Part shown: positions 14,941 through 39,636 of the stretch, piece after piece
Layout of the letters: each line of letters opens with the position of its first letter
Numbering within the stretch: the stretch's first letter is position 1
DNA from: Eledone cirrhosa
Taxonomy: Eukaryota
Direction: 5' to 3'
DNA: 64,000 bases
Assembly: GCA_964016885.1 (NCBI GenBank)
Contig: OZ024740.1
Span: 223,200,001-223,264,000, forward strand
Translations under genes and position numbers: made by a program
The notes under the pieces: generated by a model
Seen by the model: the letters and a program-made list of their open reading frames with translations, nothing else
Database searches by the model: none
Told to the model about the DNA's origin: nothing

Positions 14941-17900
14941 CGAGCCCATAGCCGGGGCTAGCCCATAGCCGGGGCTAGCCCCTAGCCGGGTCGAGCCCAT
15001 AGCCGGGTTCGAGCCCCTATCCGGTTCGAGCCCATAGCCGGGTCGAGCCCATAGCCGGTTCGAGCCCATAGCCGGGGCGAGCCCCTAGCCGGGTCGAGCC
15101 TCTAGCCGGGTCGAGCCCATAGCCGGGTCGAGCCCATAGCCGGGTTGAGTCCAGAACGAGGCTTAGACCAGAACGAGGCTACTTCCAGAACGAGGCTACT
15201 TCCAGAACGAGGCTGAGTCCAGACTGAGGCTGAGCCCAGAACGAGGCTGAGCCCAGAACGAGGCTGAGCCCAGAACGAGGCTGAGTCCAGAACGAGGTTG
15301 AGTCCAGAACGAGGCTGAGTCCAGAACGAGACTGAGACCAGAACGAGGTTGAGTCCAGAACGAGGCTGAGTCCAGAACGAGGATGAGTCCAGAACGAAGC
15401 TGAGTCCAGAACGAGGCTGAGTCCAGAACGAGGCTGAGTCCAGAACGAGGCTGAGCCCAGAACGAGGCTGAGCCCAGGGCGAGGATGAGCTTAGAAGGAG
15501 GCTGAGCCCAGAACGAGGCTGAGTCTAGAACGAGGCTGAGTCTAGAACGAGGCTGAGTCTAGAACGAGGCTGAGTCCAGAACGAGACTGAGTCCAGAACG
15601 AGGCTGAGTCCAGAACGAGACTGAGTCCAGAACGAGGTTGAGTCCAGAATGAGGCTGATTCCAGAAGGAAGCTGAGTCCAGAACGAGGCTGAGTCCAGAA
15701 CGAGGCTGAGTCCAGAACGAGGCTGAGTCCAAAACGAGGCTGAATCCAGAACGAGGCTGAGTCCAGAACGAGGCTTACCCAGAACGAGGCTGAGTCCAGA
15801 ACGATGCTGAGTCCAGAACGATGATGAGTCCAGAACGGGGCTGTGTCCAGAACGAGACTGAGTCTAGAACGAGACTGAGTCCGAAACGAGGCTGAGTCCA
15901 GAACGAGGCTTAGTCCAGAACGAGGCTTAGTCCACAACGAGGCTTAGTCCACAACGAGGGTGAGTTCAGAACGAGGCTGAGTCCAGACCGAGGCTGAGTC
16001 CAGAACGAGGCTGAGTCCAGAACGAGGCTTAGACAGAACGAGGCTGAGTCCAGAACAAGGCTGAGAACATAATGAGGCTGAGTCCAGAACGAGGCTTAGT
16101 CCAGAACGAGGCTGATTCCACTACGAGGCTGAGTCCAGAACGAGGCTGAATCCAGAACGAGGCTTAGTCCAGAACGAGGCTGAGCCCAGAACGAGGCTAC
16201 ATCCAGAACGAGGCTGAGTCCAGAACGAGGCTGAGCCCAGAATGAGGCTGAGCCCAGAACAAGGCTAAGCTCAGAACGAGGCTGGGCCCAAACCAGGCTG
16301 AGTCCAGTACGAGGCTAAGCCCAGAACGAGGCTGAGCCCAGAACGAGGTTGAGCCCAGAACGAGGCTGAGTCCAGAATGAGGATGAGTCCAGAATGAGGC
16401 TGAGTCCAGAACGAGGCTGACTCCACTACGAGACTGAGGCACAGAACGAGGCTGATTCCAGAACGAGGCTGAATCCAGAACGAGGATGAGTCCCGAACGG
16501 AGCTGAGTCCAGAACGAGGCTGAGTCCAGTACGAGGCTAAGCCCAGAACGAGGCTTAGTCCAGAACGAGGCTTAGTCCACAACGAGGGTAAGTTCAGAAC
16601 GAGGCTGAGTCCAGACCGAGGCTGAGTCCAGAACGAGGCTGAGTCCAGAACGAGGCTTAGCCCAGAACGAGGCTGAGTCCAGAACAAGGCTGAGAACATA
16701 ATGAGGCTGAGTCCAGAACGAGGCTTAGTCCAGAACGAGGCTGATTCCACTACGAGGCTGAGTCCAGAACGAGGCTGAATCCAGAACGAGGCTTAGTCCA
16801 GAACGAGGCTGAGCCCAGAATGAGGCTACGTCCAGAACGAGGCTGAGTCCAGAACGAGGCTGAGCCCAGAATGAGGCTGAGCCCAGAACAAGGCTAAGCT
16901 CAGAACGAGGCTGGGCCCAAACCAGGCTGAGTCCAGTACGAGGCTGAGCCCAGTACGAGGCTGAGCCCAGAACGAGGCTGAGCCCAGAACGAGGCTCAGT
17001 CCAGAATGAGGCTGAGTCCAGAATGAGGCTGAGTCCAGAACGAGGCTGACTCCACTACGAGGCTGAGTCCCGAACGAGGCTGAGTCCAGAACGAGGCTGA
17101 ATCCAGAACGAGGATGAGTCCCGAACGAGGCTGAATCCAGAACGAGGCTTAGCCCAGAACGAGGCTGAGTCCAGAACGAGGCTGAGAACATAATGAGGCT
17201 GAGTCCACAACGAGGCTGAGTCCAGAACGAGGCTGACTCCACTACGAGGCTGAGTCCAGAACGAGGCTGAGTCCAGAACGAGGCTGAATCCAGAACGAGG
17301 CTTAGTCCAGAACGAGGCTGAGCCCAGAACGAGGCTGAGTCCAGAACGAGGCTGAGCCCAGAGTGAGGCTGAACCCAGAACAAGGCTAATCTCAGATCGA
17401 GGCTGAGCCCAAACGAGGCTGAGTCCAGTAGGAGGCTGAGTTCATAACGAGGCTGAGTCCAGAACGAGGCTGAGCCCAGAACGAGGCTAAGCCCAGAACG
17501 ATGCTATGTATAGAACGAGGCTGAGTCCAGAACGAGGCTGAGTTCAGAACGAGGCTGAGTCCAGAACGAGGCTGAGTCCAAAACGAGGCTGAATCCAGAA
17601 CGAGGCTGAGTCCAGAACGAGGCTTAGTCCAGAACGAGGCTGAGTCCAGAATGGGCTGAGTCCAGAACGATGCTGAGTCCAGAACGATGCTGAGTCCAGA
17701 ACGGGGCTGTGTCCAGAACGAGACTGAGTCCAGAACGAGACTGAGTCCGAAACGAGGCTGAGTCCGAAACGAGGCTGAGTCCAGAACGAGGCTTAGTCCA
17801 GAACGAGGCTTTGTCCAGAACGAGGGTGAGTTCAGAACGAGGCTGAGTCCAGAACGAGGCTGAGTCCGGCTCGAGCCCATAGCCGGGTCGAGCCCCTAGC

Positions 17901-20900
17901 CGGGTCGAGCCCATAGCCGGGTCGAGCCCATAGCCGGGTAGAGCCCCTAGCCGGGTCGAGCCAATAGCCGGGTTGAGCCCATAGCCGGGTCGAGCCCATA
18001 GTGGGGGAGCCCATAGCCGGTCGAGCTCATAGCCGTGTCGAGCCCATAGCCGGATCGAGCCCCTAGCCGGGTCGAGCCCATAGCCGGGTCGAGCCCATAG
18101 CCCGAGCCCATAGAACGAGGCTGAGCCCAGAACGAGGCTGAGCCCAGAACGAGGCTGAGTCTAGAACGAGGTTGAGTCCAGAACGAGGTTGAGTCCAGAA
18201 CGAGGCTGAGTCCAGTACGAGGCTGAGTTCAGAACGAGACTGAGTCCAGCACAATGCTGAGTCCACTACGAGGCTGAGTCCAGAACGAGGCTGAGTCCAG
18301 AACGAGGCTGAGCCCAGAACGAGGCTGAGCCCATAACGAGGCTGAGACCAGAACGAGGCAGAACCCGGAACGAGACTGAGTTCGGAACGAGGCTGAGCCC
18401 GGAACGAGGCTGAGTCCAGAATGAGGCTGATTCCAGAAGGAAGCTGAGTCCAGAATGAGGCTGAGTCCAAAACGAGGCTGAATCCAGAACGAGGCTGAGT
18501 CCAGAACGAGGCTGAGTCCAGAAAGGGCTGAGTCCAGAACGATGCTGAGTCCAGAACGAGACTGAGTCCAGAACGAGACTGAGTCCGAAACGAGGCTGAG
18601 TCCGAAACGAGGCTGAGTCCAGAACGAGGCTTAGTCCAGAACGAGGGTGAGATCAGAACGAGACTGAGTCCAGAACGAGACTGAGTCCAGAACGAGGATG
18701 AGTCCGGCTCAGCCCATAGCCGGGTCGAGCCCCTAGCCGGGTCGAGCCCATAGCTGGGTCGAGCCCATAGCCGGGTAGAGCCCCTAGCCGGGTCGAGCAA
18801 ATAGCCGGGTTGAGCCCATAGCCGGGTGGAGCCCATAGTGGGGCGAGCCCATAGCCGGGTCGAGCTCATAGCCGGGTCGAGCTCATAGCCGTGTCGAGCC
18901 CATAGCCGGGTCGAGCCCCTAGCCGGGTCGAGCCCATAGCCGGGTCGAGCCCATAGCCCGAGCCCATAGAACGAGGGTGAGCCCAGAACGAGGCTGAGCC
19001 CAGAACGAGGCTGACTCCAGAACGAGGTTGAGTCCAGAACGAGGCTGAGTCCAGTACGAGGCTGAGTTCAGAACGAGACTGAGTCCAGCACAATGCTGAG
19101 TCCACTTCGATGCTGAGTCCAGGCGAGGCTGAGAACATAATGAGGCTGAGTCCAGAACGAGGCTGAGTTCAGAACGAGGCTGAGTCCAGAACGAGGCTGA
19201 GTGCAGAACGAGGCTGAGTCCAGAACGAGGCTGAGTCCAGAACGAGGCTGAACCCAGAACAAAGCAGAGCCCAGAACGAGGCTGAGCCCAGAACGAGGCT
19301 GAGCCCAGAACGAGGCTGAGTCCGGATCGACCCCATAGCCGAGTCGAGCCCATAGCCGGGTCGAGCCTCTAGCCGTGTCGAGCCCATAGCCGGGGCGAGC
19401 CTCTAGCCGGGTCGAGCCCCTAGCCGGGTCGCGCCCATAGTCGGGTCGAGCCCCTAGCCGGGTCGAGCCTCTAGCCGGGTCGAGCCCATGACCGGGTCGA
19501 GCCCCTAGCCGGATCGAGCCCATAGCTGGATCGAGCCCATAGTGGGTCGAGCCCATAGCCGGGTTGAGCCCATAGCCGGGTCAAGCCCCTAGCCGGGTCG
19601 AGCCCATAGCCGGTTGAGCCCCTAGCCGGGTCGAGCCAATATACTGGTCGAACCCCTAGCCGGGTCGAGCCCATAGCCGGGTCGAGCCCCTAGCCGGGTC
19701 GAGCCCATAGCCGCGTCGAGCCCATAGCCCGAGCCCATAGAAAGAGGCTGAGCCCAGAACGAGGCTGAGCCCAGAACGAGGCTGAGTCTAGAACGATGTT
19801 GAGTCCAGAACGAGGTTGAGTCCAGAACGAGGCTGAGTCCAGTACGAGGCTGAGTTCAGAACGAGACAGAGTCCAGCACAATGATGAGTCCACTTCGATG
19901 ATGAGTCCAGAACGAGGCTGAGCCCAGAACGAGGCAGAGCCCAGAACAAGGCAGAACCCGGAACGAGACTGGGCCCGGAACGAGGCTGAGCCCGGAACGA
20001 GGCTGAGCCCCGAACGAGGCTGAGTCAGGAACGAGGCTGAGTCCACTACGAGGCTGAGTCCAGAACGAGGCTGACTCCAGAACGAGGCTGATTCCAGAAC
20101 GAGGCTGAGTCCAGAACGAGGCTGAGTCCAGAACGAGGCTGAGCCCAGAACGAGGCTGAGGCCAGAACGAGGCTTAGTCTAGAACGAGGCTTAGTCCAGA
20201 ACGAGGCTGAGTCCAGAACGAGGCTGAGAACATAATGTGGCTGAGTCCAGAACGAGGCTGAGCCCAGAACGAGGCTGAATCCAGAACGAGGCTGAGTCCA
20301 GAACGAGGCTGAGCCCAAACGAGGATGAGTCCAGTAGGAGGCTGAGTCCATAACGAGGCTGAGTCCAGAACGAGGCTGAGCCCAGAACGAGGCTGAGCCC
20401 AGAACGAGGCTGAGCCCAGAACGAGGCTGACTCCACTACGAGGCGGAGTCCAGAACGAAGCTGAGTCCAGAACGAGGCTGAATCCAGAACGAGGCTTAGT
20501 CCAGAACGAGGCTGCGCCCAGAACGAGGCTGAGTCCAGAACGAGGCTGAGCCCAGAATGAGGCTGAGCCCAGAACAAGGCTAAGCTCAGAACGAGCTTGG
20601 GCCCAAACCAGGCTGAGTCCAGTACGAGGCTAAGCCCAGAACGAGGCTGAGCCCAGAACGAGGTTGAGTCCAGAATGAGGCTGAGTTCAGAACGAGGCTG
20701 ACTCCACTACGAGACTGAGTCCAGAACGAGGCTGAGTCCAGAACGAGGCTGAATCCAGAACGGGGATGAGTCCCGAACGAGGCTGAGTCCAGAACGAGGC
20801 TTTGCCCAGAACGAGGCTGAGTCCAGAACGAGGCTGAGAACATAATGAGGATGAGTCCAAAACGAGGCTGAGTCCAGAACGAGGCTGAGTCCAGAACGAG

Positions 20901-23900
20901 GCTGAATCCAGAACGAGGCTTAGTCCAGAACGAGGCTGAGCCCAGAACGAGGCTGAGTCCAGAACGAGGCTGAGTCCAGAACGAGGCTGAGCCCAGAATG
21001 AGGCTGAGCCCAGAACAAGGCTAAGCTCAGAACGAGCTTGGGCCCAAACCAGGCTGAGTCCAGTACGAGGCTAAGCCCAGAACGAGGCTGAGCCCAGAAC
21101 GAGTTTGAGTCCAGAATGAGGCTGAGTTCAGAACGAGGCTGACTCCACTACGAGACTGAGTCCAGAACGAGGCTGAGTCCAGAACGAGGCTGAATCCAGA
21201 ACGGGGATGAGTCCCGAACGAGGCTGAGTCCAGAACGAGGCTTTGCCCAGAACGAGGCTGAGTCCAGAACGAGGCTGAGAACATAATGAGGATGAGTCCA
21301 AAACGAGGCTGAGTCCAGAACGAGGCTGAGTCCAGAACGAGGCTGAATCCAGAACGAGGCTTAGTCCAGAACGAGGCTGAGCCCAGAACGAGGCTGAGTC
21401 CAGAACGAGGCTGAGTCCAGAACGAGGCTGAGCCCAGAATGAGGCTGAGCCCAGAACAAGGCTAATCTCAGAACGAGGCTGAGTCCACTACGAGACTGAG
21501 TCCAGAACGAGGCTGAGTCCAGAACGAGGCTGAATCCAGAACGGGGATGAGTCCCGAACGAGGCTGAGTCCAGAACGAGGCTTTGCCCAGAACGAGGCTG
21601 AGTCCAGAACGAGGCTGAGAACATAATGAGGCTGAGTCCAGAACGAGGCTGAGTCCAGAACGAGGCTGAATCCAGAACGAGGCTTAGTCCAGAACGAGGC
21701 TGAGCCCAGAACGAGGCTGAGTCCAGAACGAGGCTGAGTCCAGAACGAGGCTGAGCCCAGAATGAGGCTGAGCCCAGAACAAGGCTAATCTCAGAACGAG
21801 GCTGAGTCCAGTAGGAGGCTAAGTCCACAACGAGGCTGAGCCCAGAACGAGGCTGAGCCCAGAACGAGGCTGAGCCCAGAACGAGGCTGAGCCCAGAACG
21901 AGGCTGAGCCCAGAACGAGGCTAAGCCCAGAACGATGCTGAGTCCAGAACGAGGCTGAGTCCAGAACAAGGCTGAGAACACAATGAGGCTTAGTCTAGAA
22001 CGAGACATAGTCCAGAACGATGCTGAGTCCAGAACGAGGCTGAGTCCAGAATGATGCTGAGTCCAGAACGATGCTGAGTCCAGAACGAGGCTGAGTCCGG
22101 ATCGAGCCCATAGCCGAGTCGAGCCCATAGCCGGGTCGAGCCTCTAGCCGTGTCGAGCCCATAGCCGGGGCGAGCCCCTAGCCGGGTCGAGCCCCTAGCC
22201 GGGTCGCGCCCATAGCCGGGTCGAGCCCCTAGCCGGGTCGAGCCTCTAGCCGGGTCGAGCACATGACCGGGTCGAGCCCCTAGCCGGATCGAGCCCATAG
22301 CTGGATCAAGCTCATAGTGGGTCGAGCCCATAGCCGGGTCGAGACCATAGCCGGGTCGAGCACCTAGCCGGGGCGAGCCCCTAGCCGGGTCGAGCCCATA
22401 GCCGGGTCGAGCCCATAGCCGGTTCGAGCCCATAGCCGGGTCGAGCCCATAGCTGGATCGAGCCACTAGCTGGGTCGAGCCCATAGCCGGGTCGAGGCCC
22501 TAGCCGTGTCGAGCCCCTAGCCGGGTCGAGCCCATAGCCGAGTCGAGCCCATAACCGGGTCGAGCCCATAACCGGGTCGAGCCCATAGCCGGGTCGAGCC
22601 CATAGCCGATGCAGAGTCCAGAACGAGGCTGAGTCCAAAACGAGGCTGATTTCAGAACGAGGTTGAGTACTGAACGAGGCCGAGTCCAGAACGAGGCTGA
22701 GCCCAGAACGAGGCTGAGTCCAGTACGAGGCTGAGTCCAGAACGAGGCTGAGTCCAGAACGAGGCTGAGTCCAGAACGAGGATGAGTTCAGAACGAGGCT
22801 GAGTCCAGAACGAGGCTGAGTTCAGAACGAGGCTGAGTCCAGAACGAGGCTGAACCCAGAACGAGGCAGAGCCCACAACGAGGCTGAACCCAGAACGAGG
22901 CTGAGCCCAGAACGAGGCTGAGTCCGGATCGAGCCCATAGCCGAGTCGAGCCCATAGCCGGGTCGAGCCTCTAGCCGTGTCGAACCCATAGCCGGGGCGA
23001 GCCCCTAGCCGGGTCACGCCCATAGCCGGGTCGAGCCCCTAGCCGGGTCGAGCCTCTAGCCGGGTCGAGCCCATAGCCGGGTCGAGCCCCTGTCTGGATC
23101 GAGCCCATAGCCGAGTCGAGCCCATGCCGGGTCGAGCCCATAGCCGGGTTGAGCCCATAGCCGGTCGAGCCCATAGCTGGGTCGAGCCCCTAGCCGGGTC
23201 GAGCCCCTAGCCGGGTTGAGCCCATTATGGGTCGAGCCCATAGCCGGGTTGAGCCCATAGCCGGGTCGAGCCCCTAGCCGTGTCGAGCCCATAGCCGGGT
23301 CAAGCCCCTAGCCGGGTCGAGCCCATAGCCGGGTTGAGCCCCTAGCCGGGTCGAGCCAATATACTGGTCGAACCCCTAGCCGTGTCGAGCCCCTAGCCGG
23401 GTCGAGCCCATAGCCGGGTCGAGCCCCTAGTCGAGTCGAGCCCATAACCGGGTCGAGCCCATAGCCGGGTCGAGCCCATAGCCGATGCTGAGTCCAGAAC
23501 GAGGCTGAGTCCAAAACGAGGCTGATTTCAGAACGAGGTTGAGTACTGAACGAGGCCGAGTCCAGAACGAGGCTGAGCCCTGAACGAGGCTGAGCCCAGA
23601 ACGAGGCTGAGTCCAGTACGAGGCTGAGTCCAGAACGAGGCTGAGTCCAGAACGAGGCTGAGTCCAGAACGAGGCTGAGTCCAGAACGAGGCTGAGTTCA
23701 GAACGAGGCTGAGTACAGAACGAGGCTGAGTTCAGAACGAGGCTGAGTCCAGAACGAGGCTGAGTCCAGAACGAGGCTGAACCCAGAACAAGGCAGAGCC
23801 CACAACGAGGCTGAACCCAGAACGAGGCTGAGCCCAGAACGAGGCTGAGTCCGGATCGAGCCCATAGCCGAGTCGAGCCCATAGCCGGGTCGAGCCTCTA

Positions 23901-26900
23901 GCCGTGTCGAACCCATAGCCGGGGCGAGCCCCTAGCCGGGTCACGCCCATAGCCGGGTCGAGCCCCTAGCCGGGTCGAGCCTCTAGCCGGGTCGAGCCCA
24001 TAGCCGGGTCGAGCCCCTAGCTGGATCGAGCCCATAGCCGAGTCGAGCCCATGCCGGGTCGAGCCCATAGCCGGGTTGAGCCCATAGCCGGTCGAGCCCA
24101 TAGCCGGGTCGAGCCCCTAGCCGTGTCGAGCCCCTAGCCGGGTCGAGCCCCTAGCCGGGTTGAGCCCATTATGGGTCGAGCCCATAGCCGGGTTGAGCCC
24201 ATAGCCGGGTCGAGCCCCTAGCCGTGTCGAGCCCATAGCCGGGTCAAGCCCCTAGCCGGGTCGAGCCCATAGCCGGGTTGAGCCCCTAGCCGGGTCGAGC
24301 CAATATACTGGTCGAACCCCTAGCCGGGTCGAGCCCATAGCCGGGTCGAGCCCCTAGCCAGGTCGAGCCCATAGCCGGGTCGAGCCCATAGCCCGAGCAC
24401 ATAGAACGAGGCTGAGCCCAGAACGAGGCTGTGCCCAGAACGAGACTGAGTCTAGAACGAGGTTGAGTCCAGAACGAGGTTGAGTCCAGAACGAGGCTGA
24501 GTCCAGTACGAGGCTGAGTTCAGAACGAGACTGAGTCCAGCACAATGCTGAGTCCACTTCGATGCTGAGTCCAGAACGAGGCTGAGGCCAGAATGAGGCT
24601 GAGCCCAGAACGAGGCTGAGCCCAGAACGAGGCAGAACCCGGAACGAGACTGAGTCCGGAACGAGGCTGAGCCCAGAACGAGGCTGAGTCCGGAACGAGG
24701 CTGAGTCCACTACGAGGCTGAGTCCAGAACGAGACTGAGACCAGAACGAGGTTGAGTCCAGAACGAGGATGAGTCCAGAACGAAGCTGAGTCCAGAACAA
24801 GGCTGAGTCCAGAACGAGGCTGAGTCCGGCTCGAGCCCATAGCCGGGTCGAGCCCATAGCCGAGTCGAGCCCATAGCCGGGACGAGCCCATAGCCGGGTA
24901 GAGCCCCTAGCCGGGTCGAGCCAATAGCCGGGTTGAGCCCATAGCCGGGTCGTGCCCATAGTGGGGCAAGCCCATAGCCTGGTCGAGCCCATAGTCGTGT
25001 CGAGCCCATAGCCGGATCGAGCCCCTAGCCGGGTCGAGCCCATAGCCCGAGCCCATAGAACGAGGCTGAGCCCAGAACGAGGCTGAGCCCAGAACGAGGC
25101 TGAGTCTAGAACGAGGTTGAGTCCAGAACGAGGTTGAGTCCAGAACGAGGTTGAGTCCAGTACGAGGCTGAGTTCAGAACGAGACTGAGTCCAGCACAAT
25201 GCTGAGTCCACTTCGATGCTGAGTCCAGAACGAGGTTGAGCCCAGAACGAGGCTGAGCCCAGAACGAGGCAGAACACGGAACGAGACTGAGCCCGGAACG
25301 AGGCTTAGCCCGGAACGAGGCTGAGCCCAGAACGAGGCTGAGTCCGGAACGAGGCTGAGTCCACTACGAGGCTGAGTCCAGAACGAGGCTGAGTCCAGAA
25401 CGAGGCTGAGACCAGAACGAGGCTGAGTCCAGAACGAGGCTGAGTCCAGAACAAGGCTGAGTCCAGAACGAGGCTGAGCCCAGAACGAGTCCGAGCCCAG
25501 AACGAGGCCGAGCCTAGAACGAGGCCGAGCCCAGAACGAGGCCGAGTCCAGAACGAGGTTGAGTTCAGAACGAGGTTGAGTCCAGAACGAGGCTGAGTCC
25601 AGAACGAGGCTGAGCACAGAACGAGGCTGAGCCCAGAACGAGGCTGAGCCCTGAACGAGGATGAGCCCAGAACGAGGCTGAGTCCAGTACGAGGCTGAGT
25701 CCAGAACGATGCTGAGTCCAGAACGAGGCTAAGTCCAGAACGATGCTGAGTCCAGAACGAGGCTGAGTCCAGAACGAGGCTTAGCCCAGAACGAGGATGA
25801 GTCCAGAACGAGGCTGAGTCCAGAACGAGGCTGAGTCCAGAACGAAGCTGAGTCCAGAACGAGGCTGAGCGCAGAACAAGGCTGAGCCCAGAACGAGGCT
25901 GAGCCCAAACGAGGCTGAGTCCAGTACGAGGCTGGGCCCAGAACGAGGCTGAGTCCAGAATGAGGCTGAGTCCAGAATGAGGGTGAGTCCAGAACGAGGC
26001 TGACTCCACTACGAGGCTGAGTCCAGAACGAGGCTGAGTCCAGAACGAGGCTGAATCCAGAACGAGGATGAGTCCCGAACGAGGCTGAGTCAAGAACGAG
26101 GCTTTGCCCAGAACGAGGCTGAGTCTAGAACGAGGCTGAGAACATAATGAGGCTGAGTTCAGAACGAGGCTGAGTCCAGAACGAGGCTGACTCCACTACG
26201 AGGCTGAGTCCAGAACGAGGCTGAATCCAGAACGAGGCTTAGTCCAGAACGAGGCTGAGCCCAGAACGAGGCTGAGTCCAGAACGAGGCTGAGCCCAGAG
26301 TGAGGCTGAGCCCAGAACGAGGCTGAGTCCAGAACGAGGCTGACTCCACTACGAGGCTGAGTCCAGAACGAGGCTGAGTCCGGATCGAGCCCATAGCCGA
26401 GTCGAGCCCATAGCCGGGTCGAGCCTCTAGCCGTGTCGAGCCCATAGTCGGGGCGAGCCCCTAGCCGGGTCGCGCCCATAGCCGGGTCGAGCCCCTAGCC
26501 GAATCGAGCCTCTAGCCGGGTCGAGCCCCTAGCCGGGTCTAGCCCCTAGCCGGATCGAGCCCATAGCCGAGTCGAGCCCATGCCGGGTCGAGCCCATAGC
26601 CGGGTTGAGCCCATAGCCGGTCGAGCCCATAGCCGGGTCGAGCCCCTAGCCGTGTCGAGCCCCTAGCCGGTACGAGCCCCTAGCGGGGTCGAGCCCATGG
26701 CCGGGTTGAGCCCCTATCCGGGTCGAGCCCATAACCGGGTCGAGCCCATAGCCGATGCTGAGTCCAGAACGAGGCTGAGTCCAGAACCAGGCTCAGTCCA
26801 GAACGAAGCTGAGTCCAGAGCGAGGCTGAGTCCAGTACGAGACTGAGTCCAGAACAAGGCTGAGTACAAAACGAGGCTGAGCCCAGAACGAGGTTGAGCC

Positions 26901-29900
26901 CAGAACGAGGCTGAGCCCAGAACGAGGCTGAGCCCAGACCGATGCTGAGTCCAGAACGAGGCTGAGCTCAGAACGAGGCTGAGTCCAGTATGAGGCTGAG
27001 TCCAGAACGAGGCTGACTCCACTACGAGGCTGAGTCCAGAACGAGGCTGAGTCCAGAACGAAGCTGAATCCAAAACGAGGCTGAGTCCAGAACGAGGCTG
27101 AGTCCAGAACGAGGCTGAGTCCGGATCGAGCCCATAACCGAGTCGAGCCCATAGCCGGGTCGAGCCCCTAGCCGTGTCGAGCCCATAGCCGGGGCGAGCC
27201 CATAGCCGGGTCAAGCCCATAGCCGGGTCGAGCCATAGCCGGGTCGAACCCCATAGCAGGGTCGAGCCCATTGCCGGGTCGAGCCCCTAGCCGGGTCGAG
27301 ACCGTAGCCGGGTCGAGCCCATTATGGGTCGAGCCCTCGCCGGGTCGAGATCATAGCCGGGTTGAGCCCATAGCCGGGTCGAGCCCATAGCCGGGTCTAG
27401 CCCATAGCCGGTTCTAGCCCATGCCGGGTCGAGCCCATAGCCGGGTCGAGCCCCTAGATGGGTCGAGCCCGTATCCGGATCGAGCCCATAGCCGGGTCGA
27501 GCCCATAGCCGATGCTGAGTCCAGAACGAGGCTGAGTCCAGAACGAGGCTGAGTTCAGAACGAGGTTGAGTCCAGAACGAGGCTGAGTCCAGAACGAGAC
27601 TGAGTCCAGAATGAGGCTGAGTCAGAACGAGGCTGACTCCAGAAGGAGGCTCACTCCACTACGAGGCTGAGTCCGGAACAAGGCTGAGTCCAGAACGAGG
27701 CTGAATCCAGAACGAGGCTGAGTCCAGAACGAGGCTGAGTCCAGAACGAGGCTGAGAACATAATGAGGCTGAGTCCAGAACGAGACTGAGTTCAGAACGA
27801 GGCTGAGTTCAGAACGATGCTGAGTCCAGAACGAGGCTGAGTCCAGAACGAGGCTGAACCCAGAACAAAGCAGAGCCCAGAACGAGGCTGAGCCCAGAAC
27901 GAGGCTGAGCTCAGAACGAGGCTGAGTCCGGATCGAGCCCATAGCCGAGTCGAGCCCATAGCCGGGTCGAGCCTCTAGCCGTGTCGAGCCCATAGCCGGG
28001 GCGAGCCCCTAGCCGGGTCGAGCCCCTAGCCGGGTCGCGCCCATAGCCGGGTCGAGCCCCTAGCCGGGTCGAGCCTCTAGCCGGGTCGAGCCCATGGCCG
28101 GGTCGAGCCCCTAGCCGGATCGAGCCCATAGCTGGATCGAGCCCATAGTGGGTCGAGCCCATAGCCGGGTTGAGCCCATAGCCGGGTCGAGCCCCTAGCC
28201 GTGTCGATCCCATAGCCGGGTCAAGCCCCTAGCCGGGTCGAGCCCATAGCCGGTTGAGCCCCTAGCCGGGTCGAGCCAATATACTGGTCGAACCCCTAGC
28301 CGGGTCGAGCCCATAGCCGGGTCGAGCCCCTAGCCGGGTCGAGCCCATAACCGGGTCGAGCCCATAGCCGATGCTGAGTCCAGACCGAGACTGAGTCCGA
28401 AACGAGGCTGAGTCCGAAACGAGGCTGAGTCCAGAACGAGGCTTAGTCCAGAACGTGGCTTAGTCCAGAACGAGGGTGGGTTCAGAACGAGGCTGAGTCC
28501 AGAACGAGGATGAATCCGGCTCGAGCCAATAGCCGGGTCGAGCCCCTAGCCGGGTCGAGCCCATAGCTGGGTCGAGCCCATAGCCGTGTCGAGCCCATAG
28601 CCGGGCAGAGCCCCTAGCCGGGTCGAGCCCATAGCCGGGTCGAGCCCCTAGCCGGGTCGAGCCCATAGCCGGGTCGAGCCCATAGCCCGAGCCCATAGAA
28701 AGAGGCTGAGCCCAGAACGAGGCTGAGCCTAGAACGAGGTTGAGTCCAGAACGAGGTTGAGTCCAGAACGAGGCTGAGTCCAGAACGAGGCAGAGCCCAG
28801 AACGAGGCAGAACCCGGAACGAGACTGGACCCGGAACGAGGCTGAGCCCGAAACGAGGCTGAGACCAGAACGAGGCTGAGTCCGGAACGAGGCTGAGTCC
28901 ACTACGAGGCTGAGTCCAGAACGAGGCTGACTCCAGAACGATAGCCCATAGCCTATTCGAGCCCATAGCCGGGTCGAGCCTCTAGCCGTGTCGAGCCCAT
29001 AGCCGGGGCGAGCCCATAGCCGGGTCGCGCCCATAGCCGGGTCGAGCCCCTAGCCGGGTCGAGCCTCTAGTCGGGTCGAGCCCATAACCGGGTCGAGCCC
29101 CTAGCCGGATCGAGCCCAAGGCGAGTCGAGCCCATGACGGGTCGAGCCCATAGCCGGGTTGAGCCCATAGCCGGTCGAGCCCATAGCCGTGTCGAGCCCC
29201 GAGCCGGGTCGAGCCCCGAGCCGGGTCGAGCCCATAGTGGGTCGAGCCCATAGCCGGGTTGAGCCCATATCCGGGTCGAGCCCCTAGCCGTGTCGAGCCC
29301 ATAGCCGGGTCAAGCCCCTAGCCGGGTCGAGCCCATAGCCGGGTTGAGCCGCTAGCCGGGTCGAGCCAATATACTGGTCGAACCCCTAACCGGGTCGAGC
29401 CCATAGCCGGGTCGAGCCCTTAGCCGGGTCGAGCCCATAGCCGCGTCGAGCCCATAGCCGCGTCGAGCCCATGGCCGGGTTGAGCCCCTAGCCGGGTCGA
29501 GCCCATAACCGGGTCGAGCCCATAGCCGATGCTGAGTCCAGAACGAGGCTGAGTCCAGACCGAGGCTGAGTCCAGAACGAGGCTGAGTCCAGAACGAGGC
29601 TTACTCCAGAACGAGGGTGAGTTCAGAACGATGCTGAGCCCAGAACGGGGCTGTGTCCAGAACGAGACTGAGTCCAGAACGAGGCTGACTCCACTACGTG
29701 GCTGAGTCCAGAACGAGGCTGAGTCCAGAACGAGGCTGAATCCAGAACGAGGCTTAGTCCAGAACGAGGATGAGCCCAGAACGAGGCTGAGTCCAGAACG
29801 AGGCTGACTCCAGAACGAGGCTGAGCCCAGAATGAGGCTGAGCCCAGAACAAGGCTAAGCTCAGAACGAGGCTGGGCCCAAACCAGGCTGAGTCCAGTAC

Positions 29901-32900
29901 GAGGCTAAGCCCAGAACGAGGCTGAGCCCAGAACGAGGTTGAGCCCAGAACGAGGCCGAGTCCAGAATGAGGCTGAGTCCAGAACGAGGCTGAGTCAAGA
30001 ACGAGGCTGAGTCCGGTTCGAGTCCATAGCCGGGTCGAGACCATAGCCGGGTCGAGCACCTAGTCGGGGCGAGCCCCTAGCCGGGTCGAGCCCATAGCCG
30101 GGTCGAGCCCATAGCCGGTTCGAGCCCATAGCCGGGTCGAGCCCATAGCTGGATCGAGCCACTAGCTGGGTCGAGCCCATAGCCGGGTCGAGGCCCTAGC
30201 CGTGTCGAGCCCCTAGCCGGGTCGAGCCCATAGCCGGGTCGAGCCCCTAGTCGAGTCGAGCCCATAACCGGGTCGAGCCCATAGCCGGGTCGAGCCCATA
30301 GCCGATGCTGAGTCCAGAACGAGGCTGAGTCCAGAACGAGGCTGAGTCCAAAACGAGGCTGAGTTCAGAACGAGGTTGAGTCCTGAACGAGGCCGAGTCC
30401 AGAACGAGGCTGAGCCCTGAACGAGGCTGAGCCCAGAACGAGGCTAAGCCCAGAACGAGGCTGAGTCCAGTACGAGGCTGAGTCCATAACGAGGCTGAGT
30501 CCAGAACGAGGCTGAACCCAGAACAAGGCAGAGCCCAGAACGAGGCTGAGTCCAGAACGAGGCTGAGTCCAGAACGAGGCTGAGTCCGGATCGAGCCCAT
30601 AGCCGAGTCGAGCCCATAGCCGGGTCGAGCCTCTAACCGTGTCGAGCCCATAGCCGGGGCGAGCCCCTAGCCGGGTCGCGCCCATAGCCGGGTCGAGCCC
30701 CTAGCCGGGTCGAGCCTCTAGCCGGGGCGAGCCCCTAGCTGGATCGAGCCCATAGCCCAATCGAGCCCATGCCGGGTCGAGCCCATAGCCGGGTTGAGCC
30801 CATAGCCGGTCGAGCCCATAGCCGGGTCGAGCCCCTAGCCGTTTCGAGCCCCTAGCCGGTTCGAGCCCATAGTGGGTCGAGCCCATAGCCGGGTTGAGCC
30901 CATAAACGGGTCGAGCCCCTAGCCGTGTCGAGCCCATAGCCGTGTCAAGCCCCTAGCCGGGTCGAGCCCATAGCCGGGTTGAGCCCCTAGCCGGGTCGAG
31001 CCAATATACTGGTCGAACCCCTAGCCGGGTCGAGCCCATAGCCGGGTCGAGCCCTAGCCGGGTCGAGCCCATAGCGGGGTCGAGCCCATAGCCCGAGCAC
31101 ATAGAACGAGGCTGAGCCCAGAACGAGGCTGAGCCCAGAACGAGACTGAGTCTAGAACGAGGTTGAGTCCAGAACGAGGTTGAGTTCAGAACGAGACTGA
31201 GTCCAGCGCAATGCTGAGTCCTCTTCGATGCTGAGTCCAGAACGAGGCTGAGTCCACAACGAGACTGAGCCCAGAACGAGGCTGAGCCCAGAACGAGACA
31301 GAACCCGGAACGAGACTGAGCCCGGAACGAGGCTGAGCCCGGAACGACGTTGAGCCCAGAACGAGGCTGAGTTCGGAACGAGGCTGAGTCCACTACGAGG
31401 CTGAGTCCAGAACGAGGCTGAGACCAGAACGAGGTTGAGTCCAGAACGAGGATGATTCCAGAACGAAGCTGAGTCCAGAACAAGGCTGAGTCCAGAACGA
31501 GGCTGAGTCCGGCTCTAGCCCATAGCCGGGTCGAGCCCATAACCGGGTCGAGCCCATAGCCGGGACGAGCCCATAGCCGGGTAGAGCCCCTAGCCGGGTC
31601 GAGCCAATAGCCGGGTTGAGCCCATAGCCGGGTCGTGCCCATAGTGGGGCGAGCCCATAGCCGGGTCGAGCCCATAGCCGTGTCGAGCCCATAGCCGGGT
31701 CGAGCCCCTAGCCGGGTCGAGCCCATAGCCCGAGCCCATAGAACGAGGCTGAGCCCAGAACGAGGCTGAGTCCAGAACGAGGCTGAGTCCAGAACAAGGC
31801 TGAGCCCAGAACGAGGCTGAGCCCAGAACGAGGCAGAACCCGGAACGAGACTGAGTCCAGAACGAGGCTGAGCCCAGAACGAGGCTGAGTCCACTACGAG
31901 GCTGAGTCCACTACGAAGCTGAGTCCAGAACGAGGCTGAGTCAAGAACGAGGCTGAGACCAGAACGAGGCTGAGTACAGAACGAGGCTGAGTCCAGAACG
32001 AGGCTGAGTCCAGAACGAGGCTGAGCCCAGAATGAGGCTGAGCCCAGAACAAGGCTAATCTCAGAACGAGGCTGAGCCCAAACGAGGCTGAGTCCAGTAG
32101 GAGGCTGAGTCCAGAACGAGGCTGAGCCCAGAACGAGGCTGAGCCCAGAACGAGGCTGAGCCCAGAACGAGGCTAAGCCCAGAACGATGCTGTGTCCAGA
32201 ACGAGGCTTAAGTCCAGAACGAGGCTGAGTTCAGAACGAGGCTGAGTCCAGAACGAGGCTGAGTCAAGAACGAGGCTGAGTCCGGTTCGAGTCCATAGCC
32301 GGGTCGAGACCATAGCCGGGTCGAGCACCTATCCGGGGCGAGCCCCTAGCCGGGTCGAGCCCATAGCCGGGTCGAGCCCATAGCCGGTTCGAGCCCATAG
32401 CCGGGTCGAGCCCATAGCTGGATCGAGCCACTAGCTGGGTCGAGCCCATAGCCGGGTCGAGGCCCTAGCCGTGTCGAGCCCCTAGCCGGTTCGAGCCCAT
32501 AGCCGGGTAGAGCCCCTAGTCGAGTCGAGCCCATAACCGGGTCGAGCCCATAGCAGGGTCGAGCCCATAGCCGATGCTGAGTCCAGAATGAGGCTGAGTC
32601 CAAAACGAGGCTGAGTTCAGAACGAGGTTGAGTCCTGAACGAGGCCGAGTCCAGAACGAGGCTGAGCCCTGAACGAGGCTGAGCCAAGAACGAGGCTGAG
32701 CCCAAACGAGGCTGAGTCCAGTAGGAGGCTGAGTCCATAACGAGGCTGAGTCCAGAACGGGGCTGAGCCCAGAACGAGGCTGAGCCCAGAACGAGGCTGA
32801 GCCCAGAACGAGGCTAAGCCCAGAACGATGCTGAGTCCAGAACGAGGCTGAGTCCAGAACGAGGCTGAGTTCAGAACGAGGCTGAGTCCAGAACGAGGCT

Positions 32901-35900
32901 GAGTCAAGAACGAGGCTGAGTCCGGTTCGAGTCCATAGCCGGGTCGAGCCCATAGCCGGGTCGAGCACCTAGCCGGGGCGAGCCCCTAGCCGGGTCGAGC
33001 CCCTAGCCGGGTCGAGCCCATAGACGGTTCAAGCCCATAGCCGGGTCGAGCGCATAGCTGGATCGAGCCACTAGCTGGGTCGAGCCCATAGCCGAGTCGA
33101 GCCCATAGCCGGGTCGAGCCTCTAGCCGTGTCGAGCCCATAGCCGGGGCGAGCCCATAGCCGGGTCGCGCCCATAGCCGTGTCGAGCCCCTAGCCGGGTC
33201 GAGCCTCTGGTCGGGTCGAGCCCATAGCCGGGTTGAGCCCCTAGCCGGATCGAGCCCATAGCCGAGTCGAGCCCATGCCGGGTCGAGCCCATAGCCGGGT
33301 TGAGCCCATAGCCGGTCGAGCCCATAGCCGTGTCGAGCCCCGAGCCGGGTCGAGCCCCTAGCCGGGTCGAGCCCATAGTGGGTCGAGCCCATAGCCGGGT
33401 TGAGCCCATAGCCGGGTCGAGCCCCTAGCCGTGTCGAGCCCATAGCCGGGTCAAGCCCCTAGCCGGGTCGAGCCCATAGCCGGGTTGAGCCGCTAGCCGG
33501 GTCGAGCCAATATACTGGTCGAACCCCTAACCGGGTCGAGACCATAGCCGGGTCGAGCCTCTAGCCGGGTCGAGCCCTTGGCCGGGTCGAGCCCATAGCC
33601 GCGTCGAGCCCATAGCCGGGTCGTGCCCATGGCCGGGTTGAGCCCCTAGCCGGGTCGAGCCCATAACCGGGTCGAGCCCATAGCCGATGCTGAGTCCAGA
33701 ACGAGGCTGAGTCCAGACCGAGACTGAGTCCAGAACGAGGCTGAGTCCAGAACGAGGCTTAGCCCAGAACGAGGCTGAGTCCAGAACAAGGCTGAGAACA
33801 TAATGAGGCTGAGTCCAGAACGAGGCTGAGTCCAGAACGAGGCTGACTCCACTACGTGGCTGAGTCCAGAACGAGGCTGAGTCCAGAACGAGGCTGAATC
33901 CAGAACGAGGCTTAGTCCAGAACGAGGATGAGCCCAGAACGAGGCTGAGTCCAGAACGAGGCTGAGTCCAGAACGAGGCTGAGCCCTGAACGAGGCTGAG
34001 CCAAGAACGAGGCTGAGCCCAAACGAGGCTGAGTCCAGTAGGAGGCTGAGTCCATAACGAGGCTGAGTCCAGAACGAGGCTGAGCCCAGAACGAGGCTGA
34101 GCCCAGAACGAGGCTGAGCCCAGAACGAGGCTAAGCCCAGAACGATGCTGAGTCCAGAACGAGGCTGAGTTCAGAACGAGGCTGAGTCCAGAACGAGGCT
34201 GAGTCAAGAACGAGGCTGAGTCCGGTTCGAGTCCATAGCCGGGTCGAGCCCATAGCCGGGTCGAGCACCTAGCAGGGGCGAGCCCCTAGCCGGGTCGAGC
34301 CCCTAGCCGGGTCGAGCCCATAGACGGTTCGAGCCCATAGCCGGGTGGAGCGCATAGCTGGATCGAGCCACTAGCTGGGTCGAGCCCATAGCCGAGTCGA
34401 GCCCATAGCCGGGTCGAGCCTCTAGCCGTGTCGAGCCCATAGCCGGGGCGAGCCCATAGCCGGGTCGCGCCCATAGCCGGGTCGAGCCCCTAGCCGGGTC
34501 GAGCCTCTGGTCGGGTCGAGCCCATAGCGGGGTCGAGCCCCTAGCCGGATCGAGCCCATAGCCGAGAGGAGCTGATGCCGGGTCGAGCCCATAGCCGGGT
34601 TGAGCCCATAGCCGGTCGAGCCCATAGCCGTGTCGAGCCCCGAGCCGGGTCGAGCCCCTATACGGGTCGAGCCCATAGTGGGTCGAGCCCATAGCCGGGT
34701 TGAGCCCATAGCCGGGTCGAGCCCCTAGCCGTGTCGAGCCCATAGCCGGGTCAAGCCCCTAGCCGGGTCGAGCCCATAGCCAGGTTGAGCCGCTAGCCGG
34801 GTCGAGCCAATATACTAGTCGAACCCCTAACCGGGTCGAGCCCATAGCCGGGTCGAGCCCCTAGCCGGGTCGAGCCCTTAGCCGGGTCGAGCCCATAGCC
34901 GCGTCGAGCCCATAGCCGGGTCGAGCCCATGGCCGGGTTGAGCCCCTAGCCGGGTCGAGCCCATAACCGGGTCGAGCCCATAGCCGATGCTGAGTCCAGA
35001 ACGAGGCTGAGTCCAGACCGAGACTGAGTCCAGAACGAGGCTGAGTCCAGAACGAGGCTTAGCCCAGAACGAGGCTGAGTCCAGAACAAGGCTGAGAACA
35101 TAATGAGGCTGAGTCCAGAACGAGGCTGAGTCCAGAACGAGGCTGACTCCACTACGTGGCTGAGTCCAGAACGAGGCTGAATCCAGAACGAGGCTTAGTC
35201 CAGAACGAGGATGAGCCCAGAACGAGGCTGAGTCCAGAACGAGGCTGAGTCCAGAACGAGGCTGAGCCCAGAATGAGGCTGAGCCCAGAACAAGGCTAAG
35301 CTCAGAACGAGGCTGGGCCCAAACCAGGCTGAGTCCAGTACGAGGCTAAGCCCAGAACGAGGCTGAGCCCAGAACGAGGTTGAGCCCAGAACGAGGCTGA
35401 GTCCAGAATGAGGCTGAGTCCAGAACGAGGCTGAGTCAAGAACGAGGCTGAGTCCGGTTCGAGTCCATAGCCGGGTCGAGACCATAGCCGGGTCGAGCAC
35501 CTAGCCGGGGCGAGCCCCTAGCCGGGTCGAGCCCATAGCCGGGTCGAGCCCATAGCCGGTTCGAGCCCATAGCCGGGTCGAGCCCATAGCTGGATCGAGC
35601 CACTAGCTGGGTCGAGCCCATAGCCGGGTCGAGGCCCTAGCCGTGTCGAGCCCCTAGCCGGGTCGAGCCCATAGCCGGGTCGAGCCCCTAGTCGAGTCGA
35701 GCCCATAACCGGGTCGAGCCCATAGCCGGGTCGAGCCCATAGCCGATGCTGAGTCCAGAACGAGGCTGAGTCCAAAACGAGGCTGAGTTCAGAACGAGGT
35801 TGAGTCCTGAACGAGGCCGAGTCCAGAACGAGGCTGAGCCCTGAACGTGGCTGAGCCCAGAACGAGGCTAAGTCCAGAACGATGCTGAGTCCAGTACGAG

Positions 35901-37963
35901 GCTGAGTCCAGATCGAGGCTGAGTCCAGAACGAGGCTGAACCCAGAACAAGGCAGAGCCCAGAACGAGGCTGAGCCCAGAACGAGGCTGAGCCCAGAACG
36001 AGGCTGAGTCCGGATCGAGCCCATAGCCGAGTCGAGCCCATAGCCGGGTCGAGCCTCTAACCGTGTCGAGCCCATAGCCGGGGCGAGTCCCTGCCGGGTC
36101 GCGCCCATAGCCGGGTCGAGCCCCTATACGGGTCGAGCCTCTAGCCGGGTCGAGCCCATAGCCGGGTCGAGCCCCTAGCTGGATCGAGCCCATAGCCGAG
36201 TCGAGCCCATGCCGGGTCGAGCCCATAGCCGGGTTGAGCGCATAGCCGGTCGAGCCCATAGCCAGGTCGAGCCCCTAGCCGTTTCGAGCCCCTAGCCGGG
36301 TCGAGCCCATAGTGGGTCGAGCCCATAGCCGGGTTGAGCCCATAAACGGGTCGAGCCCCTAGCCGTGTCGAGCCCATAGCCGGGTCAAGTCCCTAGCCGG
36401 GTCGAGCCCATAGCCGGGTTGAGCCCCTAGCCGGGTCGAGCCAATATACTGGTCGAACCCCTAGCCGGGTCGAGCCCATAGCCGGGCCGAGCCCTAGCCG
36501 CGTCGAGCCCATAGCGGGGTCGAGCCCATAGCCCGAGCACATAGAACGAGGCTGAGCCCAGAACGAGGCTGAGCCCAGAACGAGACTGAGTCTAGAACGA
36601 GGTTGAGTCCAGTACGAGGCTGAGTTCAGAACGAGACTGAGTCCAGCACAATGCTGAGTCCTCTTCGATGCTGAGTCCAGAACGAGGCTGAGTCCAGAAC
36701 GAGGTTGAGCCCAGAACGAGGCTGAGCCCAGAACGAGGCAGAACCCGGAACGAGACGTAGCCCGGAACGACGCTGAGCCCAGAACGAGGCTGAGTCCGGA
36801 ACGAGGCTGAGTCCACTACGAGGCTGAGTCCAGAACGAGGCTGAGACCAGAACGAGGTTGAGTCCAGAACGAGGATGAGTCCAGAACGAAGCTGAGTCCA
36901 GAACAAGGCTGAGTCCAGAACGAGGCTGAGTCCGGCTCGAGCCCATAGCCGGGTCGAGCCCATAGCCGGGTCGAGCCCATAGCCGGGACGAGCCCATAGC
37001 CGGGTAGAGACCCTAGCCGGGTCGAGCCAATAGCCGGGTTGAGCCCATAGCCGGGTCGTGCCCATAGTGGGGCGAGCCCATAGCCGGGTCGAGCCCATAG
37101 CCGTGTCGAGCCCATAGCCGGGTCGAGACCCTAGCCGGGTCGAGCCCATAGCCCGATCCCATAGAACGAGGCTGAGCCCAGAACGAGGCTGAGCCCAGAA
37201 CGAGGCTGAGTCTAGAACGAGTTTGAGTCCAGAACGAGGTTGAGTCCAGAACGAGGCTGAGTCCAGTACGAGGCTAAGTTCAGAACGAGACTGAGTCCAG
37301 CACAATGCTGAGTCCACTTCGATGCTGAGTCCAGAACGAGGCTGAGTCCAGAACGAGGCTGAGTCCAGAACGAGGCTGAGCCCAGAACGAGGCTGAGCCC
37401 AGAACGAGGCAGAACCCGGAACGAGACTGAGCCCGGAACGAGGCTGAGCCCAGAACGAGGCTGAGTCCGGAACGAGGCTGAGTCCACTACGAGGCTGAGT
37501 CCAGAACGAGACTGAGTCCAGAACGAGGCTGAGTCCAGAACGAGGCTGAGTCCAGAACGAGGCTGAGCCCAGAACGAGTCCGAGCCCAGAACGAGGCCGA
37601 GCCCAGAACGAGGCCGAGTCCAGAACGAGGCTGAGCCCAAACGAGGCTGTCCAGTACGAGGCTGAGTCCAGAACGAGGCTGAGTCCAGAATGAGGCTGAC
37701 TCCAGAACGAGGCTGACTCCAGAACGAGGCTCACTCCACTACGAGGCTGAGTCCAGAACAAGGCTGAGTCCAGAACGAGGCTGAATCCAGAACGAGGCTG
37801 ATTCCAGAACGAGGCTGAGTCCAGAACGAGGCTGAGCCCAGAACGAGGCTGAGTCCAGAACGAGGCTGAGTCCAGAACGAGGCTGAGTCCAGAACGAGGC
37901 TGAGTTCAGAACGAGGCTGAGTTCAGAACGAGGCTGAGTTCAGAACGAGGCTGTATCCAGAAC
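14941..37963. repeat. ~23 kb composite satellite of two 17-bp monomers: A = GAGCCCATAGCCGGGTC and B = GAGTCCAGAACGAGGCT
   Basis: About 1,350 monomers (length divided by 17), all in one orientation. About 22 alternating A and B blocks, with recurrent variant motifs marking higher-order repeats. Confidence 0.97.
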
Positions 37964-39211: not shown

Positions 39212-39597
39212 TAACGCCTAGGGGTATTACTTCCACTACCACTATGACCACGACCACTAACAACAACAACAACAACAACAACAACAATAATAATAATAAT
39301 AAAAGTGATGTTGATGGTGATGATTAATAGAAAATGCTATTTTCATCATTTTAAAAAAAAGCAAAACGATTGATACGTTGGATATGACTATTGGTCGTTA
39401 TCATGCTCAACCAGCCGTGACGCTTAAACCAATCAGCTGTAGTAATTCAGTGAAACTACACACTGATTGGTCGAAATACAGTTTACAGGGCTTTGCATTC
39501 TGGAGCCACATTTCTCTGTATAAAATGTATAAAAGGTAGGAAATTTACCCATCTCAATACAGTTGAAAATTGCAAACTCGACTGTCACCACATACCA

Positions 39598-39636
39598 TGA
39601 ACCTGAAGATTGCGAAAGCATGAAAGTACTTGTTCA
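39598..39636 (+). ncRNA. Minimal type I hammerhead ribozyme in the PLE pseudo-LTR
   Basis: TGAAC CTGAAGA TTGCGAAAGCAT GAAAG TA CTT GTTCA; identical to the reverse complement of 14340-14378. Confidence 0.78.

Follow-up and report, generated by a model that had tools for sequence, protein, structure and literature searches.

How do two different short repeats come to alternate in long pure blocks that change over at only a few stereotyped sequences, and how did such an array reach the place where it now lies? The question is raised by a 64,000-nucleotide stretch of Eledone cirrhosa DNA (assembly GCA_964016885.1, contig OZ024740.1, positions 223,200,001 to 223,264,000 of the forward strand; "the window" below), which contains a 23-kb satellite made of two 17-mers, A and B. 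The original prediction, made from the letters alone, offered two answers: either the monomers share an ancestor and a few founding junctions were amplified, or a polymerase switches between two templates at fixed registers. We consider it likely that A and B are two probably related 17-mers, that the seams between their blocks were inherited from a few joins at microhomologies, and that the array came to lie in a broken Penelope-like element through break repair.

Alignment by dynamic programming with two monomer models divides the array (14941-37963) into 1,364 units, comprising 818 B units, 495 A units, and 51 junction pieces. Units of both types are on average 92% identical to their own consensus, and among the 1,245 full-length 17-mers there is not one that lies nearer to the consensus of the other type. 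The blocks are pure, as the original prediction had it, and their lengths (about 0.17-0.76 kb for A and 0.145-2.72 kb for B) agree with the sizes it gave; a recount also reproduces its in-register match of A and B at 10/17 positions. No inverted parts were found in the array, which shares no 14-mer with its reverse complement. Paralogs within 3% (8- or 12-unit windows) exist for 68-77% of the monomers, and not one such window is left once the order of the monomers is shuffled; because of this loss, the block structure lies far beyond chance. A single fixed multi-monomer period, as in the regular higher-order repeats of alpha-satellite type, was not found in the array: the best paralog offsets range from 0.3 to 19 kb, and the order of the junction classes along the array is irregular.

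The 43 switches (21 from B to A, 22 from A to B) fall into very few forms, three of which cover 41/43 (Table 1). An 11-mer, GAGTCCGG(A/C/T)TC, mediates 20 of the 21 B-to-A switches, which bears out its earlier description as the almost invariable B-to-A seam. Its ninth base sets three subclasses, A (n = 9), C (n = 6, one of them with GAATCC), and T (n = 5). The anatomy of the C subclass consists of positions 1-6 of B fused to positions 13-17 of A across a CC microhomology, short by one 6-base sub-repeat. The sole exception, at 28942, is likely a deletion derivative, because the block behind it is of the A-subclass type. In the opposite direction, an 18-mer, GAGCCCATAGCCGATGC(T/A), accounts for 11/22 switches (AB1) and a 13-mer plus 19-mer for 10/22 (AB2). 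These are the two A-to-B forms named in the original prediction, whose list lacked the remaining switch, the first of the array, which occurs in register at 15146. Each junction form joins at a short common word (CC, CG, AG, or TGAG). The monomer decomposition and the junction catalogue, both proposed with the original prediction, confirm the array, its blocks, and its switch classes.

The flanks of the junctions tell how these forms multiplied. We scored the non-consensus variants common to the six monomers on each side of every junction, with random in-phase windows as the null. Downstream of the junctions, scores within subclasses reach 0.60 (A), 0.38 (C), 0.70 (T), and 0.36 (AB2), compared with 0.07 and 0.045 for random windows in A and B, respectively, and 0.00-0.09 for pairs taken from different subclasses. 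The rare A variant GAGTCCATAGCCGGGTC occurs in 5/495 A units, every one of them immediately 3' of a T-class junction (5/5), and the rare B variant GAGTCAAGAACGAGGCT stands immediately 5' of 5/5 T-class junctions. Diagnostic monomers recur at fixed offsets in the other classes as well: at +1 and +3 in 8/9 A-class junctions, at +6 in 5/6 C-class junctions, and at +6 to +8 in 8/10 AB2 junctions, with T-class junctions carrying theirs at -1, +1, and +3 in 5/5 cases. Whole blocks are mosaics of one another. The body of the T-class block corresponds to the distal half of the A-class block at 22104, and the blocks at 32929 and 34229 (44 units each) have a T start followed by an A body. On a larger scale, segments of several blocks recur at offsets of 441, 628, 927, 1300, 5441, and 12106 bp and up to 19 kb, with 0.3-3% divergence.

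Because each junction subclass carries its own ordered string of rare neighboring variants, the junctions most likely go back to some 3-6 founding joins at microhomologies of 2-4 bases, which segmental duplication then spread. Their mode of inheritance is duplication and in-register exchange, and repeated polymerase switching is not supported. The first answer of the original prediction, amplification of a few founding junctions, is supported by the rare monomers at fixed offsets in each subclass. The second, polymerase switching between two templates, had been tied in advance to a refuting observation, namely that the junctions of a class share their flanking variants; within the subclasses they do, and the proposal fails on its own terms.

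The relationship between A and B is less direct to read. When B is shuffled, the best of 34 registers reaches 10 matches in 16% of the trials (P = 0.16), and for the fixed register P = 0.006; the 10/17 likeness alone is weak evidence, only moderately beyond chance. Further matches are found at shifts of 5 and 11 (9 and 8 positions), as expected if A and B both stem from a 6+6+5 sub-repeat, and the sum of 27 over the three registers has P = 0.002-0.005, for a statistic that was picked after seeing the profile. The shortfall of the B-to-A join by exactly one 6-base sub-repeat fits the same ancestry. Taken alone, neither monomer has a significant self-periodicity (P = 0.14-0.17). Because A and B have equal length, lie on the same strand, switch in register at the first junction, and match in three registers, it is likely, judging from their letters, that they share a common ancestor. 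The ancestor assumed in the original prediction thus stands as probable, not as proven: length, strand, the in-register junction, and the sum of 27 speak for it, and the in-register match by itself does not carry it.

The setting of the array, which was absent from the original prediction, is a single Penelope-like retrotransposon that forms both flanks. The segment 14223-14940 corresponds to 39027-39753 in inverted form, with 13 substitutions over 718 bases, and 37964-38040 to 38500-38576, also inverted, with 3 of 77 bases different, so that the arms differ at 16/795 bases (2.0%). The pieces on either side of the array are collinear and have the same orientation, with 450 bp absent and no (TA)n between element and satellite. 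At the array ends, GGT is shared on the left and G on the right, and no other DNA separates the element from the satellite. Neither A nor B appears to derive from the replaced segment, in which the best match is 10/17; elsewhere in the window, only scattered 13/17 matches occur outside the array.

The identity of the element follows from its domains and layout. The plus-strand copy contains a GIY-YIG endonuclease (PF01541, E = 1.3e-6, above the cut-off). The reverse transcriptase of the minus-strand copy gives a hit below the cut-off (PF00078, E = 0.0011, an 82-residue piece), with QxxGxAMG and YLDD motifs visible. CCHH and a linker, CNDNRCGTC, were found by eye in the translation of 38438-39211. 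Penelope elements typically consist of a main copy and an adjacent inverted, 5'-truncated copy with a one-sided 30-40-base tail (PMC8557442), and a CX2-5CxxC finger between reverse transcriptase and endonuclease is a trait of the Neptune and Nematis clades (PMC3846280, PMC8557442). The element at this locus has the layout of an endonuclease-positive Penelope-like element, with a reverse transcriptase followed by a C-terminal GIY-YIG domain, an inverted 5'-truncated copy, and a tail on one side only, and its linker matches the Neptune/Nematis finger as far as the motif goes. A hammerhead core pattern matches at 39603 (+) and 14373 (-); its fold is no better than shuffles, and Rfam gives 0 hits at the gathering score.

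Contigs of three sequencing runs bear on the element and on the satellite. The runs belong to one sample and one study, contain 0.26, 0.11, and 0.05 of the sequence words, and may represent the source sample itself; they do not count as independent support. No RNA run containing the sequence is listed. Between 2,463 and 2,762 contigs per run are placed on the right flank, which shows a multi-copy Penelope-like family, and at their 3' ends these contigs continue into (TA)n. Within the 64-kb window, the family has no third copy. Both arms share a letter at 39439 that is absent from 70-92% of the family's contig depth, and at the 4/13 long-arm differences that fall among the 40 of 47 rows listed, the family mostly has the letter of the left arm. 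Summed contig depth, which gives no copy number, is ∼tenfold higher at 39553-39790 than over the rest of the element; this peak suggests a far more abundant short derivative that shares the 3' end and the hammerhead-like motif. Contigs of all three runs placed on 37915-39790 cover the terminal B units, and one of them bears a variant pair that is present 4 times in the window. The summed depth on these units is ∼5-15 times that of a simulation of this array alone if the single-copy depth is 7-14; it is no copy number and weakly hints at more B in the genome than this array holds.

Table 1. Features of the two-unit satellite and of the Penelope-like element that surrounds it
Feature	Position	Strand	Remarks
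3' part of main Penelope-like copy: second half of GIY-YIG region and 3' end	14223..14940	-	GGT microhomology to satellite
Two-unit satellite array, 17-mers A and B	14941..37963	+	22 A blocks and 22 B blocks, one orientation throughout
Leftmost A block	14942..15146	+	Ends in sole in-register A-to-B switch; shared TGAG
B-to-A 11-mer, C subclass	17862..17872	+	6 copies: 17862, 18700, 24822, 28512, 31505, 36928
A-to-B class AB2, 13-mer plus 19-mer	18091..18122	+	AG microhomology; 10 copies
B-to-A 11-mer, A subclass	19318..19328	+	9 copies: 19318, 22093, 22920, 23847, 26376, 27117, 27924, 30582, 36006
A-to-B class AB1, 18-mer	22596..22613	+	CG microhomology; 11 copies
Lone atypical B-to-A junction	28929..28958	+	Following block of A-subclass type
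Segment with recent copy ∼5.44 kb onward	29221..31260	+	Divergence 0.6-4.2% in 5/6 windows
B-to-A 11-mer, T subclass	30009..30019	+	5 copies: 30009, 32278, 32918, 34218, 35450; invariant rare neighbors on both sides
Reverse-transcriptase and thumb part of same Penelope-like copy	37964..38499	-	QIRGTAMG and YLDD motifs; frame broken
Inverted 5'-truncated Penelope-like copy	38500..39755	+	Thumb end, C-x4-C-x2-C linker, GIY-YIG endonuclease with CCHH, 3' end
450 bp lost from minus-strand copy, satellite in its place	38577..39026	+	No A or B match above 10/17
Hammerhead-like core motif, element 3' end	39598..39640	+	Mirror copy near 14373 (-); motif match only
Tail of ∼45 bases	39756..39800	+	Only at this end of unit; then (TA)n

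The arms of the element provide a clock for the array if satellite and arms are assumed to mutate at equal rates. Within one junction subclass, flanks are on average 5.8% and at most 11.4% apart, and the oldest internal splits of the array amount to 6-11%. The median nearest-paralog divergence is 4.2% for fixed windows (biased high) and 1.5-2.0% for best windows (biased low). If the clock is equal, the age of the junction lineages is several times that of the element, and perhaps half of the array is as young or younger. Because the internal splits of 6-11% exceed the 2.0% divergence of the arms, an already structured piece of satellite was probably copied into the element and then continued to expand.

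We propose the following course of events. A single 17-mer, probably a degenerate 6+6+5 repeat, would have split into A and B, which were homogenized as separate tracts. Rare repair or slippage may then have joined A and B tracts at the 2-4-base microhomologies seen in the junctions; all 43 switches would be covered by a single B-to-A join, two joins from A to B, the in-register switch, and a deletion at a later time. Segments of 0.3-5.4 kb that span these joins were duplicated both in tandem and over long range, and in-register recombination inside A and B tracts produced the irregular higher-order mosaic seen today. Before the insertion, the element would have stood as an inverted repeat of ∼1.25 kb, with ∼460 bases of spacer between its arms. 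Such inverted repeats are prone to breaks. For this reason we prefer templated double-strand-break repair or reintegration of a circle as the most likely route by which the structured satellite piece may have replaced 450 bp in one arm of the head-to-head Penelope-like inverted repeat, with amplification going on afterward. The array is most likely neutral repeat DNA for which no function is needed. We also compared the truncated first and last units, which in a reintegrated circle would complete a monomer; they are one base off, with a chance of ∼40% by a rough hand estimate, and this signature was not used.

Several observations weigh against this account. The sharing of variants is weaker in the upstream flanks (scores of 0.15-0.40) and downstream of AB1 (0.13), and in most classes 22-42% of these pairs exceed the 95th percentile of the null, which we put down to later insertions, deletions, and crossovers. 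The flanks of the three B-to-A subclasses diverge from each other by 13-14%, the same as random; being so unlike, the flanks alone cannot separate one origin from three. Position 15 of A is somewhat odd under any model, in that the consensus G occurs in 410/450 A units yet in 0/20 of the 11-mer junctions. The C found there in junctions (as their ninth base, 17862-36938) occurs in no ordinary A unit. By hand estimate, three independent joins in the same register that all take a rare base have a chance of <1 in 1,000 and are the less likely explanation, and a single B-to-A join in which one and the same site out of 11 was later substituted twice comes near 1 in 15. We favor a tally of one B-to-A origin, two A-to-B origins, a single in-register switch, and one deletion derivative (28942), in which the junction position that is never G remains a small oddity. 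With regard to timing, 57-59% of the monomers have a paralog within 2% by the low-biased measure, so that much of the array may have grown after the insertion; if the satellite clock ran fast, a small seed would suffice as the start of that growth. Contigs that bridge the element-satellite joints or the inversion joint were not seen among the 24 pieces listed (there are 7,913 more).

Other explanations differ in how they account for the junctions or for the setting. If a telomerase-like polymerase or the Penelope reverse transcriptase reiterated two short templates and switched between them at fixed registers, every junction would be new. A few junction forms that recur 5-11 times each, all at short microhomologies, would suit such an enzyme, as would three B-to-A subclasses that have one breakpoint yet unrelated flanks, and the position of the array within an element with a reverse transcriptase sister to telomerase (PMC8557442). 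However, newly made junctions do not explain why strings of rare variants accompany each subclass in order or why whole multi-block segments are duplicated at 0.3-3% divergence. The monomers, 8% off consensus and with heritable variants, are not fresh template copies, and the replaced element segment provides no template for A or B (best 10/17). We regard this explanation as barely tenable. A different role for the enzyme would be a jump of the Penelope reverse transcriptase to a satellite transcript and back, so that a seed came with the element and expanded in place to 23 kb. The insert lies between thumb and endonuclease, like the long captured inserts of Adineta Penelope elements that have been ascribed to template jumps (PMC3846280), short microhomologies occur at both array ends, and both consensus units are stop-free on the coding strand of the element, on which the array has 377 stop triplets compared with 1,409 on the other strand. 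This poverty in stops, however, follows from a single TAG or TGA per monomer, and common variants break the frame. Half of the endonuclease region is lost, unlike in the frame-preserving Adineta inserts, and because the splits of 6-11% are older than the 2% arms with an equal clock, the captured piece would need to have been several kilobases long and to have held several junction lineages. That the reverse transcriptase of a Penelope-like element took up a two-unit satellite of kilobase scale by jumping templates and set it down at a new site within its own body is therefore unlikely in our view. If true, it would mean that telomerase-related Penelope-like elements seed new satellite arrays in animal genomes, and would add a retrotransposon route for such seeding.

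Two further alternatives concern the flanks only. The array could be an old resident satellite locus, at both edges of which separate copies of an abundant Penelope-like family inserted. The family is indeed multi-copy (2,463-2,762 contigs per run on the right flank), the array looks older than the arms, and the right-hand piece alone resembles a 5'-inverted retro-insertion. Against two insertions, the two pieces belong to one element, in which they are collinear and point the same way; neither (TA)n nor unique DNA lies between element and satellite, although family contigs extend into (TA)n at their 3' side; the arms share a minority letter, and the 64-kb window has no third copy of the family. 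Such a coincidence is very unlikely. The Penelope setting might also be an artefact of assembly, in which a true satellite contig was joined to unrelated flanks via repeat copies. Inverted Penelope structures are known to trouble assemblies (PMC8557442), and the pieces listed include no bridging contig. Yet the arms, with differences at 16/795 positions, are not a single sequence placed twice, the collinear joints are exact to the base and leave no gap, and the variant mosaic of the array is unlike a collapsed consensus, which makes an artefact very unlikely. Insertion of a structured satellite piece by break repair remains the reading that we prefer.

With pure tracts, few chimeric junctions free of foreign DNA, and junctions linked to their flanks, the array has the features of an intermingled two-subfamily satellite of the type known from Tribolium madens and from Rsp-like. 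In T. madens, TmSat1 and TmSat2 descend from one ancestral element and, as here, alternate in arrays; they meet in two transition zones, prevalent and conserved, that consist of truncated or chimeric subunits with one type on each side and contain no foreign DNA (PMC13081366). In contrast to the present 23-kb array of 17-bp units without inversion, those units derive from ∼110-bp elements and form multi-megabase (peri)centromeric arrays with macro-dyad inversions (PMC13081366). Rsp-like and 1.688 of Drosophila simulans and Drosophila mauritiana also meet at microhomology junctions of few recurrent types tied to flanking variants, and the authors propose that hybrid repeats arose rarely and were then propagated as higher-order units through unequal exchange, conversion, or circles (PMC7403614). 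These are unrelated long satellites with junctions across many small loci (PMC7403614), whereas here probably related 17-mers of the same length alternate 43 times in one array. In Meloidogyne chitwoodi and Meloidogyne fallax, divergent monomers are joined into higher-order units at fixed short motifs, but the junctions lie in conserved boxes of 17-20 bp, one of them CENP-B-box-like, instead of microhomologies of 2-4 bases (PMC3694981). The 7-bp satellites AAACTAC, AAACTAT, and AAATTAC of Drosophila virilis are comparable as related short units of the same length in pure blocks; unlike A and B, they vary at a single base, occur in extreme abundance, show clean boundaries in few places, and lack kilobase-scale alternation (10.1101/693077). 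For the setting, Penelope elements of Adineta vaga are comparable in that they are inverted head to head with a tail on one side, carry long stretches of foreign DNA between the reverse transcriptase and the endonuclease, and show internal deletions mediated by microhomology (PMC3846280). Their inserts are 1.4-1.7 kb of Asn-rich coding DNA that often keep the frame, whereas at this locus a 23-kb satellite replaces 450 bp (PMC3846280).

No published description of this satellite was found in a literature that lacked most subscription papers and supplements, and the available main text of a centromere atlas has no mention of octopus, cephalopod, or "17 bp" (10.64898/2026.09.17.752431). The array belongs to a known kind of intermingled satellite and has an unusually short unit and a tidy, datable setting. 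It offers a clean, fully resolved small case of sister-satellite interleaving in which every junction lineage can be traced, and the inverted retrotransposon arms form a rare internal clock (2% divergence) for the arrival of the array and its later growth. The case is useful to satellite specialists and leaves the prevailing model unchanged.

Nothing in the window indicates a centromeric or other function, as far as its letters can tell. Where the original prediction considered a centromeric or subtelomeric location, the flanks suggest instead an insertion within a Penelope-like element, amid retroelement fragments and (TA)n tracts. The consensus units are stop-free on the minus strand, with frames of up to 437 codons; common variants break these frames, the pattern comes from monomer composition, and we rejected a coding function. 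No Rfam family reaches threshold in the window, and the array has 0 canonical G-quadruplex motifs on either strand. One of four 85-base satellite folds is better than shuffles (z = -2.7). A CENP-B-box-like motif was not found in the monomers; the best of 34 registers agrees with 6/9 (A) and 5/9 (B) of the box positions, for which no null was computed. A telomeric or telomerase-made repeat does not fit an array that is internal, bordered by 15 kb and 26 kb of other DNA, and made of monomers that are 8% diverged and carry inherited variants; the minus strand of the array contains TTAGGG 3 times and CTAGGG 122 times. The B dimer has 0 matches in metagenome contigs and the A dimer 0 in viral contigs, with matches not expected in either collection.

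In general, the window consists of AT-rich eukaryotic DNA in which (TA)n tracts and broken retroelements are numerous. At 39968-41140 lies a second remnant of a Penelope-like element, which belongs to a different family, with inverted ends, a GIY-YIG-like frame (40473-41021, minus strand) that has no Pfam hit, and a hammerhead-like core near 40170. Long reverse-transcriptase frames with frameshifts occupy 45310-47357 on the minus strand (45313-46191 matches PF00078, E = 7.8e-12); they have a cysteine-rich end and probably represent another Penelope-like element. Near 41887 (minus strand), the hammerhead core pattern is matched with a complementary four-base stem, and Rfam reports nothing at threshold. 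Hammerhead-like cores near 7085, 7593, and 8482 belong to a unit of ∼470 bp present in direct and inverted copies at 6453-8819, possibly a non-autonomous retrozyme-like repeat. A broken LINE-like reverse transcriptase at 10664-12900 (PF00078, E = 9.5e-13 on 11722-12390) is split by a 1.35-kb (TA)n tract, and a fragment at 2472-3479 resembles a Gypsy-type pol by appearance. Short interspersed repeats (e.g. 44416-44603) may resemble repeats of octopus genomes. Fold-back (self-inverted) segments at 8648-9950, 10262-10809, 48559-48918, and 51562-51789 are up to 97% identical and often surround (TA)n. An exact direct duplicate of 98 bases occurs at 50280-50377 and 54632-54729, 4.35 kb apart.

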